Part shown: piece after piece, positions 2,097-30,045 of the stretch
Numbering within the stretch: position 1 is the stretch's first letter
Layout of the letters: each line of letters opens with the position of its first letter
IMG/VR virus record: IMGVR_UViG_3300002835_000066
Location: 1 to 64,000 of that record
Direction: 5' to 3' (one strand)
DNA length: 64,000 nucleotides
Source: a virus
Taxonomy: Duplodnaviria; Heunggongvirae; Uroviricota; Caudoviricetes
Position numbers and translations under genes: made by a program
Notes under the pieces: generated by a model
What the model saw: the letters and a program-made list of their open reading frames with translations, nothing else
What the model was told of the DNA's origin: nothing
The model's database searches: none

Positions 2097-2489
2097 TTAA
2101 AAAGTGATTACGCCAGAGTCAATAACCGGATGTTCATCGTCTGTACGATCAACAATAGTGTAAGTGAACTTATAGGTTCCAAGTTCCTTTAGCATTTCTG
2201 CTACAGACTCAAGTTCAAAATCTTTGCACGAGTACAAATCAAACTTGTAATAACTTGGTTCACCTGACCAAAAATGTATTGATGAATGGCTGGTTGTAAT
2301 ACCTACCATCCCAGTTACGCCTTCATTACCCTCATCGTTACACCATACACAGATGGGATCAATTAAGACCTTCATGTCAACTGCTTCAACTAATCGATTG
2401 AACCAATCTTCAAGGAACGTAACGTACTCCGCTTGTGGAGCTTCATTTAGATATCCTGTAACTAGGATGTGCTTATTAACCTGTGCCAA
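2097..2489 (-). CDS. speD: S-adenosylmethionine decarboxylase proenzyme, small SpeH/SpeD-type
   Basis: 130 aa. Motif TTSHSSIHFWSGE matches the pyruvoyl-forming ESHxSIHTWPE cleavage motif of class 1 AdoMetDC. The size fits the small prokaryotic form. Confidence 0.6.
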   Translation of the reverse strand: MAQVNKHILVTGYLNEAPQAEYVTFLEDWFNRLVEAVDMKVLIDPICVWCNDEGNEGVTGMVGITTSHSSIHFWSGEPSYYKFDLYSCKDFELESVAEMLKELGTYKFTYTIVDRTDDEHPVIDSGVITF

Positions 2490-2569
2490 CTCATAAAATC
2501 CTTTCCAATATTAATTTTACTGTCAGATAGCGAATGATTATTTATCATTATGTGCGTAGTTTTAAAAAA

Positions 2570-2644
2570 TGGTACCTCGTGACGGGATTGAACCGCCGAC
2601 CTTATCCGTGTAAAGGATCTGCTCTACCGCTGAGCTAACGAGGC
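2570..2644 (-). tRNA. tRNA-Val (anticodon TAC)
   Basis: GCCTCGTTAGCTCAGCGGTAGAGCAGATCCTTTACACGGATAAGG...GGTTCAATCCCGTCACGAGGTACCA. Anticodon loop uuUACac. Confidence 0.8.
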
Positions 2645-2654
2645 ACGGTAAAAA

Positions 2655-2731
2655 TGGTCGGGAATGTAGGATTCGAACCTACGACCCCCTGCTCCCAAAG
2701 CAGGTGCGCTACCAGACTGCGCTAATCCCCG
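2655..2731 (-). tRNA. tRNA-Pro (anticodon TGG)
   Basis: CGGGGATTAGCGCAGTCTGGTAGCGCACCTGCTTTGGGAGCAGG...GGTTCGAATCCTACATTCCCGACCA. Confidence 0.85.
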
Positions 2732-2738
2732 TATATTC

Positions 2739-2814
2739 TGGTGGAGACACGGGGGTTCGAACCCCGGACCTACGGCTTGCAAAGCCGTCGCTCTACCAAC
2801 TGAGCTATATCCCC
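2739..2814 (-). tRNA. tRNA-Ala (anticodon TGC)
   Basis: GGGGATATAGCTCAGTTGGTAGAGCGACGGCTTTGCAAGCCGT...GGTTCGAACCCCCGTGTCTCCACCA. G3-U70 identity pair and A73. Confidence 0.85.
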
Positions 2815-2856
2815 ATGAAACTATTTATATCTTACTTACTCAACAAATAAAAAGAA

Positions 2857-2933
2857 TGGTGACCCTGGCAGGGCTCGAACCTGCAACCCCAAGTTTAGAA
2901 GACTCGTACTCTATCCAGTTGAGCTACAGGGCC
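2857..2933 (-). tRNA. tRNA-Arg (anticodon TCT)
   Basis: GGCCCTGTAGCTCAACTGGATAGAGTACGAGTCTTCTAAACTTGG...GGTTCGAGCCCTGCCAGGGTCACCA. Confidence 0.8.
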
Positions 2934-2991
2934 AATCTCTTAATTACTTTTGTAATATAGCAAGTATTGACCGATTTGTCAATAAGAAAGT

Positions 2992-27897: not shown

Positions 27898-28094
27898 TGG
27901 TCAAGTCCACGCTGAATGCGATAGTCTTCATCGCTAGTGCAATAAAACTGCGCCTGCAAATCGCTGTTGACGATGGTCTTAGCCACTTGTCCGGCAAACT
28001 CTACGCACTGCTCTTTGTTAGCAGACTCATATATATCTTTAGCAACAAACTCGCCTTCCTGCGTGAACAGGTATACAATCAACCAAAAACTCAT
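27894..28094 (-). CDS. small protein, tandem paralog B (MSFWLIVYLFTQEGEFV...)
   Basis: 66 aa, paralog of 27691-27897. Confidence 0.5.
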   Translation of the reverse strand: MSFWLIVYLFTQEGEFVAKDIYESANKEQCVEFAGQVAKTIVNSDLQAQFYCTSDEDYRIQRGLDQ

Positions 28095-28345
28095 TACTTA
28101 TACTCCTTAAACCACTTGAGAACATTCTGTTTATTCTTATCAAAGAACGAAACATCCATACCAAAATGCTTCTTACTCTTGAAAATCTTACCCTGCCATG
28201 CGTAGCCGCCTGCATTTTTGGGGCGATACGTCCACTTAAGCTGACCGATAACTTCACCGTCACACTTGATAGCAAAGGTATGAAACTTTTCATTTCCGAG
28301 GTCGGCAAAACCATCACGAACTTTTGCAAGAGTCCACATAGACAA
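28094..28345 (-). CDS. hypothetical small protein (83 aa)
   Basis: Preferred over the overlapping frame 28039..28329 because of its composition and tight packing with its neighbours. Confidence 0.4.
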   Translation of the reverse strand: MSMWTLAKVRDGFADLGNEKFHTFAIKCDGEVIGQLKWTYRPKNAGGYAWQGKIFKSKKHFGMDVSFFDKNKQNVLKWFKEYK

Positions 28346-28350
28346 TCTCC

Positions 28351-28542
28351 TTAGCGAGGACGATAGGGGCGGGCACCTTGTTCATCAAGATAAACAGTGC
28401 GACCATCAGCAGTGCGAACGATGATGTCCTGAATCATTTCCTCAGGATCATTAGTAGTGTCCATATAGGCGCCAACAATCAGAACTTCGTTGCCATGTGC
28501 ATCATAGCTATAACCTTGAACCATATCACCGACTTGAAACAT
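28351..28542 (-). CDS. hypothetical small protein (64 aa, start at MFQVGDMVQGY)
   Basis: Start moved to the Met that sits at the conserved spacing from the leader motif (cat at 28540-28542). Confidence 0.45.
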   Translation of the reverse strand: MFQVGDMVQGYSYDAHGNEVLIVGAYMDTTNDPEEMIQDIIVRTADGRTVYLDEQGARPYRPR

Positions 28543-28548
28543 TTGATA

Positions 28549-28581
28549 TCTCCGTTTTCTCAGCTTATAATTTACTATAGC
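28549..28581 (-). promoter_or_regulatory. conserved promoter/5'-leader motif, copy 3
   Basis: Plus strand tctccgttttctcagcttataatttactatagc. In minus-strand sense this reads TAAATTATAAGCTGAGAAAACGGAGATATCAAATG. Confidence 0.45.
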
Positions 28582-28626
28582 AAAATGGGTAACCAATGTC
28601 AACCGTTTTCTTCCAAAAAATGAATA

Positions 28627-28887
28627 TTAGGCGGCAGCGGATTCTTCATGAGTGTAGTCGCGGAAAGTGACTACAAACTTCATCGTTTCAAGATAAGTAT
28701 CAGCAAGCCGGGCAATAGAGTAGTTGCAAGGAGACTTTTCGTTAGGATATTCAACGTAAATCCAATCAATTAGTTTGCCCGCTGCGTTGGGAGCCCGCAT
28801 AATCTTAACTACTTCACCACTGATAGTACCAGCAGCAGACTCATAACGAACACGATCACCAATAAGAACAGTTTTAGGGGTAGCCAT
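28627..28887 (-). CDS. hypothetical small protein (86 aa)
   Basis: ORF. Confidence 0.4.
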   Translation of the reverse strand: MATPKTVLIGDRVRYESAAGTISGEVVKIMRAPNAAGKLIDWIYVEYPNEKSPCNYSIARLADTYLETMKFVVTFRDYTHEESAAA

Positions 28888-28947
28888 AAGTAGAACCTTT
28901 CGTTGCTCTTTATTTATGACTGATAATATCAGTTTTTGATAATCATG

Positions 28948-30045
28948 TCAACTAAAAAGATCAACTTTTTCCCAAGGGAGATACGATTTTCCAAAGTGAC
29001 CATAGTTAGTAGTAGAACTATAGATTGGTCTAAACAGGTCAAATCTTTCAATAATACCCTTAGGAGTTAAATCTACATTCTCTAGAATATACTTTTCTAA
29101 GTCTTTGCTTTCACCATCACTGTCAACGTAGAAGCTAGTTGGTTCTTCAACCCCGATTGCATAGCTAAGCTGAATCTGTGCCCAAGTTGCTTTGCCGCTT
29201 GCTACAATATTATTAGCAATGTAACGAGCCATGTAAGCAGCACTGCGGTCAACCTTTGTCGGATCCTTGCCGCTGAATGCGCCGCCGCCGTGTGGTGCTG
29301 CGCCGCCATATGTATCAACGATAATCTTACGCCCAGTAAGTCCAGTGTCACCGTCTGGTCCTCCGATCACGAACCTACCTGTAGGGTTAATCAAGAACTT
29401 AGTTTCTTTGTCAATCAAATCTGTTGGTACAACAGCACGAATAATCTGTTCAATACCATTACGAACTTCGCTGATATCAACGTCAGGGTGATGCTGTGAT
29501 GAGCAAACAATCTTATCAATTCTGTTGATTGTACCATCGTCATTATATTCAACGGTTACTTGACTCTTGCTATCAGGTCCCATCCAAATTTGACCGTCAT
29601 TCTTTCTCAAATGAGTTAGGGTCTCTACAATCTTATGACTATAATAGATTGCTGCTGGCATGTTGTTTTCTGTTTCGTTGACTGCATAACCAAACATCAA
29701 TCCTTGATCACCTGCACCGAAATTATCAGTACCTAATGCAATGTCTGGACTTTGTCCGTGCATCAAATTGATTATGTCAGCGGTTTGCCAATGAAATCCT
29801 TCCTGTTCGTACCCAACATTTTTGATCACTTTACGAATTATGTAGTCTAAATCTAGCGGATCAATTTCGCCTTTAAACTCGCCAGCAACAATTACTTTAT
29901 TAGTTGTTACTAACGTTTCACACGCACATCGTAATGCTGGATCCAAATTACTCATAACCATATCTAATACACCATCACTGATGGCGTCGGCTATTTTATC
30001 TGGGTGACCTTCGGATACTGATTCACTGGTAAACAGGTATGACAT
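28948..30045 (-). CDS. metK: S-adenosylmethionine synthetase
   Basis: Start at the internal Met (MSYLFTSESVSEGHPDK, cat at 30043-30045). The GHPDK N-terminal motif, GGGAFSGKDPTKVDRSAAYMARYIA (the MAT signature GGGAFSGKDxTKVDRS) and the right length (366 aa). Confidence 0.9.
   Translation of the reverse strand: MSYLFTSESVSEGHPDKIADAISDGVLDMVMSNLDPALRCACETLVTTNKVIVAGEFKGEIDPLDLDYIIRKVIKNVGYEQEGFHWQTADIINLMHGQSPDIALGTDNFGAGDQGLMFGYAVNETENNMPAAIYYSHKIVETLTHLRKNDGQIWMGPDSKSQVTVEYNDDGTINRIDKIVCSSQHHPDVDISEVRNGIEQIIRAVVPTDLIDKETKFLINPTGRFVIGGPDGDTGLTGRKIIVDTYGGAAPHGGGAFSGKDPTKVDRSAAYMARYIANNIVASGKATWAQIQLSYAIGVEEPTSFYVDSDGESKDLEKYILENVDLTPKGIIERFDLFRPIYSSTTNYGHFGKSYLPWEKVDLFS

Follow-up and report, generated by a model that had tools for sequence, protein, structure and literature searches.

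Do genes for the synthesis, use, and apparent recycling of S-adenosylmethionine (SAM) form one pathway when they occur together in a phage? This question is raised by the stretch of 64,000 nucleotides (nt) that was analyzed here as a whole and is called the window (positions 1–64,000 of IMG/VR record IMGVR_UViG_3300002835_000066, Caudoviricetes). The window encodes a SAM synthetase (MetK), three radical-SAM proteins, a methyltransferase-fold protein, a homologue of the SAM decarboxylase SpeD, and a class II aldolase (Table 1). A first-pass annotation of the sequence had combined these into a single SAM economy, in which MetK supplies SAM, SpeD spends it on spermidine alongside the radical-SAM enzymes, and an MtnB-like aldolase recycles the by-product 5′-methylthioadenosine (MTA). 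That reading is partly right on the genes and mostly wrong on the pathway. The region is probably a hypervariable island of tRNA and accessory genes rather than a pathway operon.

Table 1. Positions of the main features in the window and the basis of each assignment
Feature	Position	Strand	Basis
tRNA array, 28 genes	697–15272	-	ARAGORN, confirmed by Rfam at gathering scores
Putative SpeD-family pyruvoyl decarboxylase, HTVC201P type	2097–2489	-	Pfam, clade profile
N-terminal-twitch radical-SAM enzyme	10696–12054 (listed open reading frame to 12207)	-	NF033640, Pfam
Predicted class I SAM-methyltransferase-fold protein, 186 aa	15981–16541	+	AlphaFold2 and Foldseek
B12-binding (class B) radical-SAM enzyme A, 638 aa	20506–22422	-	Pfam, CPYGCTFC
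B12-binding-like radical-SAM enzyme B, 534 aa	25502–27106	-	Pfam, CRFKCSFC
metK, SAM synthetase	28948–30093 (open reading frame); probable ATG at 30045, giving 365 aa	-	Pfam and NCBIfam
nrdB, class I ribonucleotide reductase small subunit	33928–35028	-	Pfam Ribonuc_red_sm, 135 bits
Class II aldolase/adducin protein, uncharacterized subfamily	35029–35649	-	Pfam Aldolase_II
nrdA, class Ia ribonucleotide reductase large subunit with ATP cone	35649–37958	-	Pfam Ribonuc_red_lgC, 362 bits; lgN; ATP-cone

Independent gain and loss of the genes

The island is defined by its tRNA array, which is interspersed with accessory genes. The genes that had been grouped into a SAM module are scattered among the 28 tRNA genes, and comparison with related loci (numbered with the prefix L) shows that the aldolase and radical-SAM enzyme B have been independently gained, lost, and relocated. 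All four combinations of presence and absence of these two genes occur, and metK is present in every one of them (the window, L105, L111/L116, and L107). The numbers of close relatives on IMG/VR contigs differ by orders of magnitude: at least 595 contigs for the aldolase (74–93% identity among those listed), at least 289 for metK (62–100% identity), at least 23 for the SpeD homologue, and at least 7 loci, in three different genomic positions, for enzyme B. The same type of peptide-pattern scan of IMG/VR returned no close relative of enzyme A (best identity 35%) or of the twitch enzyme (29%). Conserved co-occurrence or synteny of the proposed module genes was not found among the relatives. The B12 radical-SAM genes and the aldolase are cassettes that close genomes have gained, lost, or moved, and metK is the stable element while the radical-SAM cassettes come and go. 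Such independent turnover is that of an ordinary island of accessory genes rather than of a single SAM pathway. An Rfam scan of the window found the 28 tRNAs only, with no SAM or cobalamin riboswitch.

Eighteen contigs from several samples carry the exact enzyme A protein in the gene order of the window, which indicates that the arrangement represents a real population and not an assembly artefact. An 18-kb megablast query from the window matched none of 50,697 phage records, and no cultured relative is available. Since the window proteins recur across hundreds of IMG/VR contigs and metagenome contigs bearing their homologues are up to 323–364 kb long, the lineage is one of uncultured large freshwater phages, with relatives reaching about 320–360 kb. 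The phage-type content of the window comprises a PAAR protein, a Laminin_G_3 fibre-like array, and an open reading frame (ORF) of 3191 aa, and nearly all genes lie on the - strand. The host is probably a freshwater Burkholderiales bacterium; Limnohabitans and Polynucleobacter provide the best available hint, as these genera carry copies of the aldolase.

MetK and the predicted SAM consumers

MetK matches all three S-AdoMet_synt Pfam domains (N, M, and C), scores 469 bits against TIGR01034 (cut-off 309), and contains the motifs GHPDK, GDQG, GGGAFSGKD, and KVDRS, which belong to the list of substrate-binding motifs given for viral MetK (10.1101/2021.01.05.425418). It is thus a bona fide, apparently functional SAM synthetase, as had been annotated. 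The gene is widespread in the lineage and has a fixed position, after the PAAR and orf993 genes; about 44 of 80 loci share the order orf993–metK. The 993-aa product of orf993 is taken to be a tail-spike protein. Viral metK genes have been described as abundant auxiliary metabolic genes (AMGs) that evolve under purifying selection, with expression in Lake Mendota (10.1101/2021.01.05.425418). The window gene is likewise full-length, with conserved substrate-binding motifs, and comes from an uncultured freshwater phage. Unlike the published genes, it occupies a fixed site behind the tail-spike gene in a lineage with contigs of up to ~360 kb, beside radical-SAM cassettes; radical-SAM enzymes, speD, and mtnB are not discussed in that paper. 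Just downstream of metK, a clean 334-bp indel (28620–28953) distinguishes the window from L105 and removes orf86 (28627–28887).

The presence of three radical-SAM enzymes was confirmed. All exceed the Radical_SAM (PF04055) cut-off of 29.5 bits and carry a CxxxCxxC motif, located at residues 193, 200, and 189 in the three proteins, and by family definition they are predicted to be SAM consumers. Enzyme A scores 46.8 bits against Radical_SAM and 37.2 bits against B12-binding (cut-off 32.1). The corresponding scores of enzyme B are 33.9 and 25.5 bits, the latter under the cut-off, so that B12 binding, which had been assigned to two enzymes, passes the Pfam cut-off for enzyme A alone. Both match NCBIfam models of B12 radical-SAM enzymes at scores far under the cut-offs; the best model for enzyme A is a KedN5-type C-methyltransferase (196 bits, cut-off 700). 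The two are not recent paralogues, as they share 26% identity over 120 aa.

The third enzyme is a member of NF033640 (N_Twi_rSAM, "twitch domain-containing radical SAM protein"; 309 bits, cut-off 170). In its 503-aa ORF, the Pfam SPASM match (residues 72–137) is N-terminal to the radical-SAM core (residues 185–337; 32.7 bits; motif CNQACITC), with cysteines at positions 72, 90, 91, 134, and 137. The SPASM domain that had been annotated is therefore matched, but as an N-terminal twitch and not in the classic C-terminal SPASM architecture. The first ~50 codons of the ORF at 10696–12207 are translated tRNA-Pro genes, and gene callers give a protein of 445–452 aa. Adjoining this gene is a 115-aa ORF (10156–10503) whose product has a signal peptide of the lipoprotein type as well as an HEMLH metalloprotease-like motif; two relatives have counterparts of 54–56% identity.

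Nishimura et al. (2017, PMC5332604) reported an environmental T4-like genome that carries 12 radical-SAM genes, and the window resembles it as part of a large aquatic phage with several radical-SAM genes of unassigned substrate. That genome combines its 12 genes with Fe–S assembly genes, whereas the window has three, two of them of the B12 type; Fe–S assembly genes (IscU and IscA) are present in relative L038 only.

Several observations concern the surroundings of these genes. The block at 22465–24821 encodes a Band7/SPFH protein, a peroxiredoxin (Redoxin), and a RimK-family alpha-L-glutamate ligase (232 bits against TIGR00768). It recurs, often with inserted genes, in relatives without either B12 radical-SAM gene. 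In L107, the enzyme A gene is missing between RimK and orf107, and RimK was rejected as a partner of enzyme A because it is retained in relatives that lack the radical-SAM gene. A second block (5375–7494) encodes a GT2 glycosyltransferase, a Coq4-like protein (54 bits), and a 209-aa ORF; a phage homologue of Coq4 is odd. Enzyme B directly follows this type of block in L199 and L200, and lies after a gap of ~0.65 kb in L203, and a functional link between the two is possible. In PADLOC, enzymes A and B matched PDC-M51A, an uncharacterized candidate defense family, at 92 and 55 bits, respectively, and a weak match to pVip (29 bits) was obtained for the twitch enzyme; these matches probably reflect generic radical-SAM similarity and were not taken as evidence of a defense system.

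For the only methyltransferase-like ORF found in the window, the class I assignment holds at the level of the fold and has no support from hidden Markov models (HMMs). Its AlphaFold2 model (pLDDT 93.8) gave 890 Foldseek matches in the PDB at E ≤ 1e-3, and nearly all of the 50 best matches listed are to SAM-dependent methyltransferases, such as TehB (2xva, E 4e-9). In Pfam at E ≤ 10, the sole match is Methyltransf_25 (12.8 bits, E 0.21, cut-off 27); PHROGs gave no match and a PDB profile search nothing significant. Motif I is atypical, with LGSWYN and no GxGxG. Residues D60, D90, and N104 are invariant in 43 homologues, D60 being the acidic residue that ends strand 2, and the gene is kept in 14 metK loci at 45–78% identity. 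The protein most probably adopts the class I SAM methyltransferase fold. Together with MetK and the three radical-SAM enzymes, it is consistent with the proposal that the phage both boosts and spends SAM; the part of that proposal that concerns polyamines is not supported.

The SpeD homologue

The prediction of a pyruvoyl-dependent SAM decarboxylase was borne out at the family level. The SpeD homologue matches Pfam AdoMet_dc (47.6 bits, cut-off 25), and the self-processing triad Ser67/His72/Cys88, equivalent to S63, H68, and C83 of the T. maritima enzyme, is invariant. However, the protein falls under the equivalog model of SAM decarboxylase (AdoMetDC), TIGR03330, with 36.6 bits vs a cut-off of 75.65. 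Bona fide AdoMetDCs have a Glu-Ser processing site and an invariant Pro after HxW (PMC10407285). The clade of the window protein has Thr-Ser at the processing site in 85 of 85 members and never Pro after HxW.

A profile of this 85-member clade scored 116.9 bits for the SpeD homologue of phage HTVC201P, 27–34 bits for proven AdoMetDCs, and 20–27 bits for two ornithine decarboxylase (ODC) domains, which makes HTVC201P by far the top-scoring characterized relative. A tblastn search of the 50,697 phage records gave only 12 matches, all of the HTVC201P type (11 pelagiphages and one uncultured marine phage), at 26–34% identity. A fragment of T. maritima AdoMetDC matched 150 other records, including S-PM2, P2559S, and YS40, and this set is disjoint from the former. 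The proteins of S-PM2, phiYS40, and P2559S are true AdoMetDCs, and the HTVC201P homologue has no AdoMetDC activity and decarboxylates arginine (Li et al., PMC9992855). Related SpeD-type proteins of freshwater phages decarboxylate ornithine (PMC9992855).

The window protein shares the class 1b SpeD fold, the triad, Thr-Ser, a four-residue insertion before the GVTG strand, and the absence of the Pro with both the arginine decarboxylase (ADC) of HTVC201P and the SpeDC ODCs (PMC9992855, PMC10407285). Four residues, Gln, Thr, Phe, and Tyr, are diagnostic of the ODCs (PMC10407285, Fig. 8). By positions deduced from the Fig. S5 alignment, two of the four are present (Thr and Phe), whereas the Gln is replaced by Val and the Tyr is unaligned, unlike in the SpeDC ODC group. 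The host viruses also differ, one being a large freshwater phage and HTVC201P a SAR11 podovirus. Because TIGR03330 fails, Thr-Ser occurs without the Pro, and HTVC201P gives the top clade-profile score, the SpeD homologue is a probable decarboxylase of arginine, possibly of ornithine, and not of SAM. It would most likely still be a polyamine gene, without drawing on SAM. Spermine_synth (speE) was not found among the larger window ORFs scanned against Pfam. The idea that the phage spends SAM on polyamines is thus not supported.

The aldolase and the nrdA–nrdB junction

The aldolase does sit directly between nrdA and nrdB, as had been annotated, although outside positions 2097–30045, to which the supposed module had been assigned. 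The genes of ribonucleotide reductase (RNR) adjoin it without a gap: the nrdA stop overlaps the aldolase start (TAATG), and the nrdB ATG comes immediately after the aldolase stop codon. The aldolase is flanked by nrdA and nrdB in 64–65 of the 80 loci, many with gaps of 2–4 bp or overlapping stop and start codons. In L105, which shares 98–99% of its DNA sequence with the window, precisely the aldolase gene is missing, and nrdA and nrdB overlap there in ATGA.

Other relatives carry different inserts at this junction (L008 3770–4921, L020 6565–7818, L038 8049–9996, and L041 5781–7592), namely, serine hydroxymethyltransferase (SHMT), isocitrate lyase, Fe/Mn superoxide dismutase (SOD) with IscU and IscA, or HNH-like and intein-like ORFs, the last two recognized by eye and without a Pfam match. 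The junction is an insertion hotspot for metabolic genes. In T4, the slot is occupied by mobE, a free-standing endonuclease gene, and T4-like inserts are likewise polymorphic among close relatives (PMC2790892). Unlike mobE, the insert of the window is a gene for a metabolic enzyme, with no repeat or endonuclease accompanying it in the window.

The aldolase also occurs elsewhere, beside peroxiredoxin and PMM genes, PTPS/QueD genes, or apparent glycosyltransferase/SGNH genes (the last judged by eye). It directly follows a PTPS/QueD-like gene in L042 (7813–13719, confirmed by Pfam) and L037 (9140–10651, by eye). In L042, it lies inside an apparent 7-deazaguanine cluster with GTP cyclohydrolase-like, PRTase-like, YhhQ-like, twitch radical-SAM, and QueE-like genes.

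The protein matches Aldolase_II (PF00596) over its full length (103.5 bits, residues 4–200). Its best equivalog is the methionine-salvage dehydratase MtnB, TIGR03328, at 55.3 bits vs a cut-off of 137; PRK09220 gives 35.9 bits (cut-off 226) and PRK06754 gives 33.9 bits (cut-off 281), and FucA, AraD, RhaD, OtnC, and other characterized families score below MtnB. None of the equivalog cut-offs is approached by the 53 nearest full-length representatives, the best MtnB E-value among them being 1.7e-25, by estimate still below the cut-off. The MtnB-like label is therefore not sustained. Pfam supports the speD, aldolase, and SPASM assignments alike, but SpeD and the aldolase remain far under all equivalog cut-offs. 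A PHROGs search with ten window ORFs gave a single match, a family without function for the aldolase.

The aldolase family is small and separate in sequence. A search of 1.84 billion cluster representatives found only 35 aldolase-type clusters at E ≤ 1e-30, and the family comprises 7559 clusters at 90% identity. All 27 close relatives keep the motifs GNxSxR, TPSG, PSGE, HxH, and GHG unchanged, and at G23, E79, and H102 this invariance extends to the 53 representatives; the motifs align with their counterparts in PDB entries 1pvt and 2irp. An AlphaFold2 model was unusable (pLDDT 41, with 27 close homologues; the best 120 listed are all ≥80% identical). Since the metal-binding His, the Glu, and the phosphate-binding motifs are kept, an active sugar-phosphate enzyme is expected, most likely one that acts on a phosphorylated ketose or sugar phosphate. 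The protein thus shares with MtnB, FucA, AraD, RhaD, and the aldolases of the dihydroxyacetone phosphate (DHAP) shunt the full-length Aldolase_II match and the GNxSxR/TPSG, PSGE, and HxH/GHG motifs. What sets it apart from these enzymes is a score far below every equivalog cut-off and its place in a small, distinct subfamily that occurs mainly on phage contigs.

Radical-SAM enzymes release 5′-deoxyadenosine, together with S-adenosylhomocysteine (SAH) in class B, and not MTA; hence, no source of MTA is recognized in the window. As the aldolase is not an MtnB equivalog and no mtn gene turned up among the window ORFs scanned, MTA recycling is not supported.

Only one match to the aldolase, a weak one, was found among cultured phage records. 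Copies with 72–78% identity are present in the isolate genomes of Limnohabitans sp. Rim28, Polynucleobacter brandtiae, and a betaproteobacterium, where NCBI names them just "class II aldolase/adducin family protein." None of mtnA, K, N, P, C, or D was found among the ten neighbor ORFs scanned beside the Polynucleobacter and Limnohabitans copies; the neighbors scanned in these two genomes include genes for a flavoprotein disulfide reductase, cytochrome b561, RibA, and an exonuclease. The bacterial copies have a lower GC content than their flanks, and in a neighbor-joining tree they cluster with low-GC phage-like contigs of metagenome-assembled genomes inside a tight phage clade. Because of this GC content and placement, the gene may have moved from phage to host. 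A recent capture of the aldolase from the host as an AMG was considered as well and rejected, since both observations point, if anything, in the opposite direction.

The window also encodes a small membrane protein, orf100 (19624–19926), a homologue of which (31–33% identity) lies immediately upstream of the chromosomal Limnohabitans aldolase (homologues at L185 7600–7758 and L186 5346–5525). An orf100-type gene could work with the aldolase as a functional pair; alternatively, the two may be left over from a joint transfer.

Proposed explanation and alternatives

Taken as a whole, the likely explanation is a hypervariable accessory island with a stable MetK, independent cassettes, a SpeD homologue of the HTVC201P type, and an uncharacterized aldolase. 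MetK would probably keep up the SAM supply in the infected cell for its users in general, among them the radical-SAM and methyltransferase-fold proteins of the phage itself. Such general support of the SAM pool fits the retention of metK amid the turnover of radical-SAM genes. The SpeD homologue would most likely process itself and decarboxylate arginine (or ornithine) for putrescine synthesis, without SAM. Co-translation of the aldolase with RNR would reflect nothing more than the insertion hotspot at the nrdA–nrdB junction.

Several points weigh against this explanation. The window covers 64 kb of a genome that possibly exceeds 330 kb, and speE, the mtn genes, and other partners could sit elsewhere in it. 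The counts of IMG/VR relatives are lower bounds from peptide-pattern scans. The substrates of the SAM enzymes, the SpeD homologue, and the aldolase are assigned from sequence or structure, if at all; with 26–34% identity to the pelagiphage enzymes by tblastn and two of the four ODC residues, the SpeD homologue could have a different substrate. The aldolase is as conserved as RNR (median identity of 79% vs 79% for nrdB and 84% for nrdA), and this conservation, combined with translational coupling to RNR, would also fit a functional link to nucleotide metabolism.

Among the alternatives, the one that survives best, although unlikely, is that metK is kept for reasons other than radical-SAM enzymes, i.e., DNA or RNA methylation, host SAM limitation or SAM-linked defenses, or the steering of host sulfur and methionine. 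Relatives of metK are numerous in IMG/VR, and several of the fetched loci that span the site of enzyme B lack that gene. Moreover, viral metK is a widespread, expressed AMG in very different phages (10.1101/2021.01.05.425418). Yet, no DNA methyltransferase was identified in the window, and the methyltransferase-fold ORF has no assigned function. This alternative is compatible with the explanation preferred here and not exclusive of it.

It is less likely that the aldolase serves RNR by supplying nucleotide precursors, for example by redirecting pentose or ketose phosphates as cyanophage talC and other AMGs of pentose-phosphate metabolism may do. Its frequent, tightly spaced location between nrdA and nrdB, its evolution at a rate as slow as that of these genes, and the occurrence in the same slot of SHMT, which serves one-carbon and dTMP metabolism, would all agree with such a role. 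However, near-identical strains manage without the aldolase, other loci carry it away from the RNR genes, the slot also accepts the unrelated isocitrate lyase, SOD, and IscU/IscA, and the bacterial copies are not beside nrd genes.

It is quite improbable that the aldolase belongs to a route of the DHAP-shunt type and cleaves 5-deoxyribulose-1-phosphate or methylthioribulose-1-phosphate derived from SAM by-products. Class II aldolases related to MtnB and FucA reportedly perform this step in bacteria, and the phage encodes three radical-SAM enzymes. Radical-SAM genes lie within 1–7 kb of aldolases outside the RNR slot in L011, L018, L021, L042, and L060, and in L035 such a gene follows the aldolase inside the slot. 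Against this, accessory islands carry several radical-SAM genes anyway, and the presence of the aldolase is independent of enzyme B. Twitch-type radical-SAM genes occur near the aldolase in 5 of the 80 loci and near metK in 4, i.e., about equally. No nucleosidase/phosphorylase, kinase, or isomerase was found among the window ORFs or the neighbors of the host copies that were scanned. If the aldolase were linked to SAM, cleavage of 5-deoxyribulose-1-phosphate in the DHAP shunt would be more logical than the MtnB route, but no evidence was found for the DHAP shunt either. A slim chance, comparable to that of the DHAP-shunt route, is given to a reaction outside the curated class II families altogether, either a clean-up of 5-deoxy- or 5-methylthio-pentulose phosphates or a new sugar-phosphate step that feeds dNTPs. 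If true, cleavage of pentulose phosphates would be the phage's own clean-up for its radical-SAM chemistry.

The single SAM economy of the first-pass annotation is very unlikely: although MetK and the three radical-SAM enzymes are real, the SpeD homologue belongs to AdoMet_dc with an intact triad, and MtnB is nominally the top NCBIfam model for the aldolase and weakly matches 53 of its 53 nearest representatives, the SpeD homologue lacks the Glu-Ser site and the Pro of true AdoMetDCs and favors HTVC201P (117 vs ≤34 bits in the clade profile), the aldolase reaches 55 of the 137 bits set for MtnB, its bacterial copies have no mtn gene among the ten neighbors scanned, speE and mtn genes are not among the window ORFs scanned, and the genes assort independently, so that the chain from SAM via decarboxylated SAM, polyamine, and MTA to MtnB has zero supported links after MetK.

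Other features of the window

Besides the genes discussed above, two ORFs of ~365 aa at 885–2000 (-) and 13150–14235 (+) are apparent paralogues by C-terminal similarity; they match no family, and both recur in relatives. Up to four ORFs resemble SGNH/GDSL hydrolases (2992–3729, 4615–5364, 14296–15051, and 16992–17408), based on one clear Pfam match, one match to DUF6071, one weak match, and one recognition by eye only. Together with a PMM-family HAD protein (17408–18109), they suggest sugar or surface-polymer modification. Within the tRNA array, tRNA-Ile(TAT) at 7497–7590 has an unusual length of 94 nt. The fibre-like array at 38582–58222 consists of seven Laminin_G_3-containing proteins and is followed by the 3191-aa ORF. 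The GC content is 0.47 at 40–44 kb vs ~0.40 elsewhere in the window.

Implications

The locus is a known kind of thing, an accessory-gene island of a large aquatic phage. Its gene content had been thought to exceed what has been described, but publications already cover viral metK (10.1101/2021.01.05.425418), viral homologues of SpeD (PMC9992855), and a T4-like genome that carries 12 radical-SAM genes (PMC5332604). In the literature, no paper was found that combines metK, radical SAM, and AMGs, and none that ties a class II aldolase to phage RNR.

A "speD" label in a phage does not amount to a SAM decarboxylase, nor does an Aldolase_II match amount to methionine salvage, and pathways pieced together from labels of this kind are probably wrong. 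On the positive side, the gain is small: a SAM synthetase is retained through a large freshwater phage lineage as radical-SAM genes vary. Residual interest lies in the SpeD homologues, which form a new clade, and in the strain-level polymorphism of the aldolase family at the RNR junction. This uncharacterized aldolase family, which is abundant, mostly found in phages, and usually located between the RNR genes, is a reasonable target for biochemistry.

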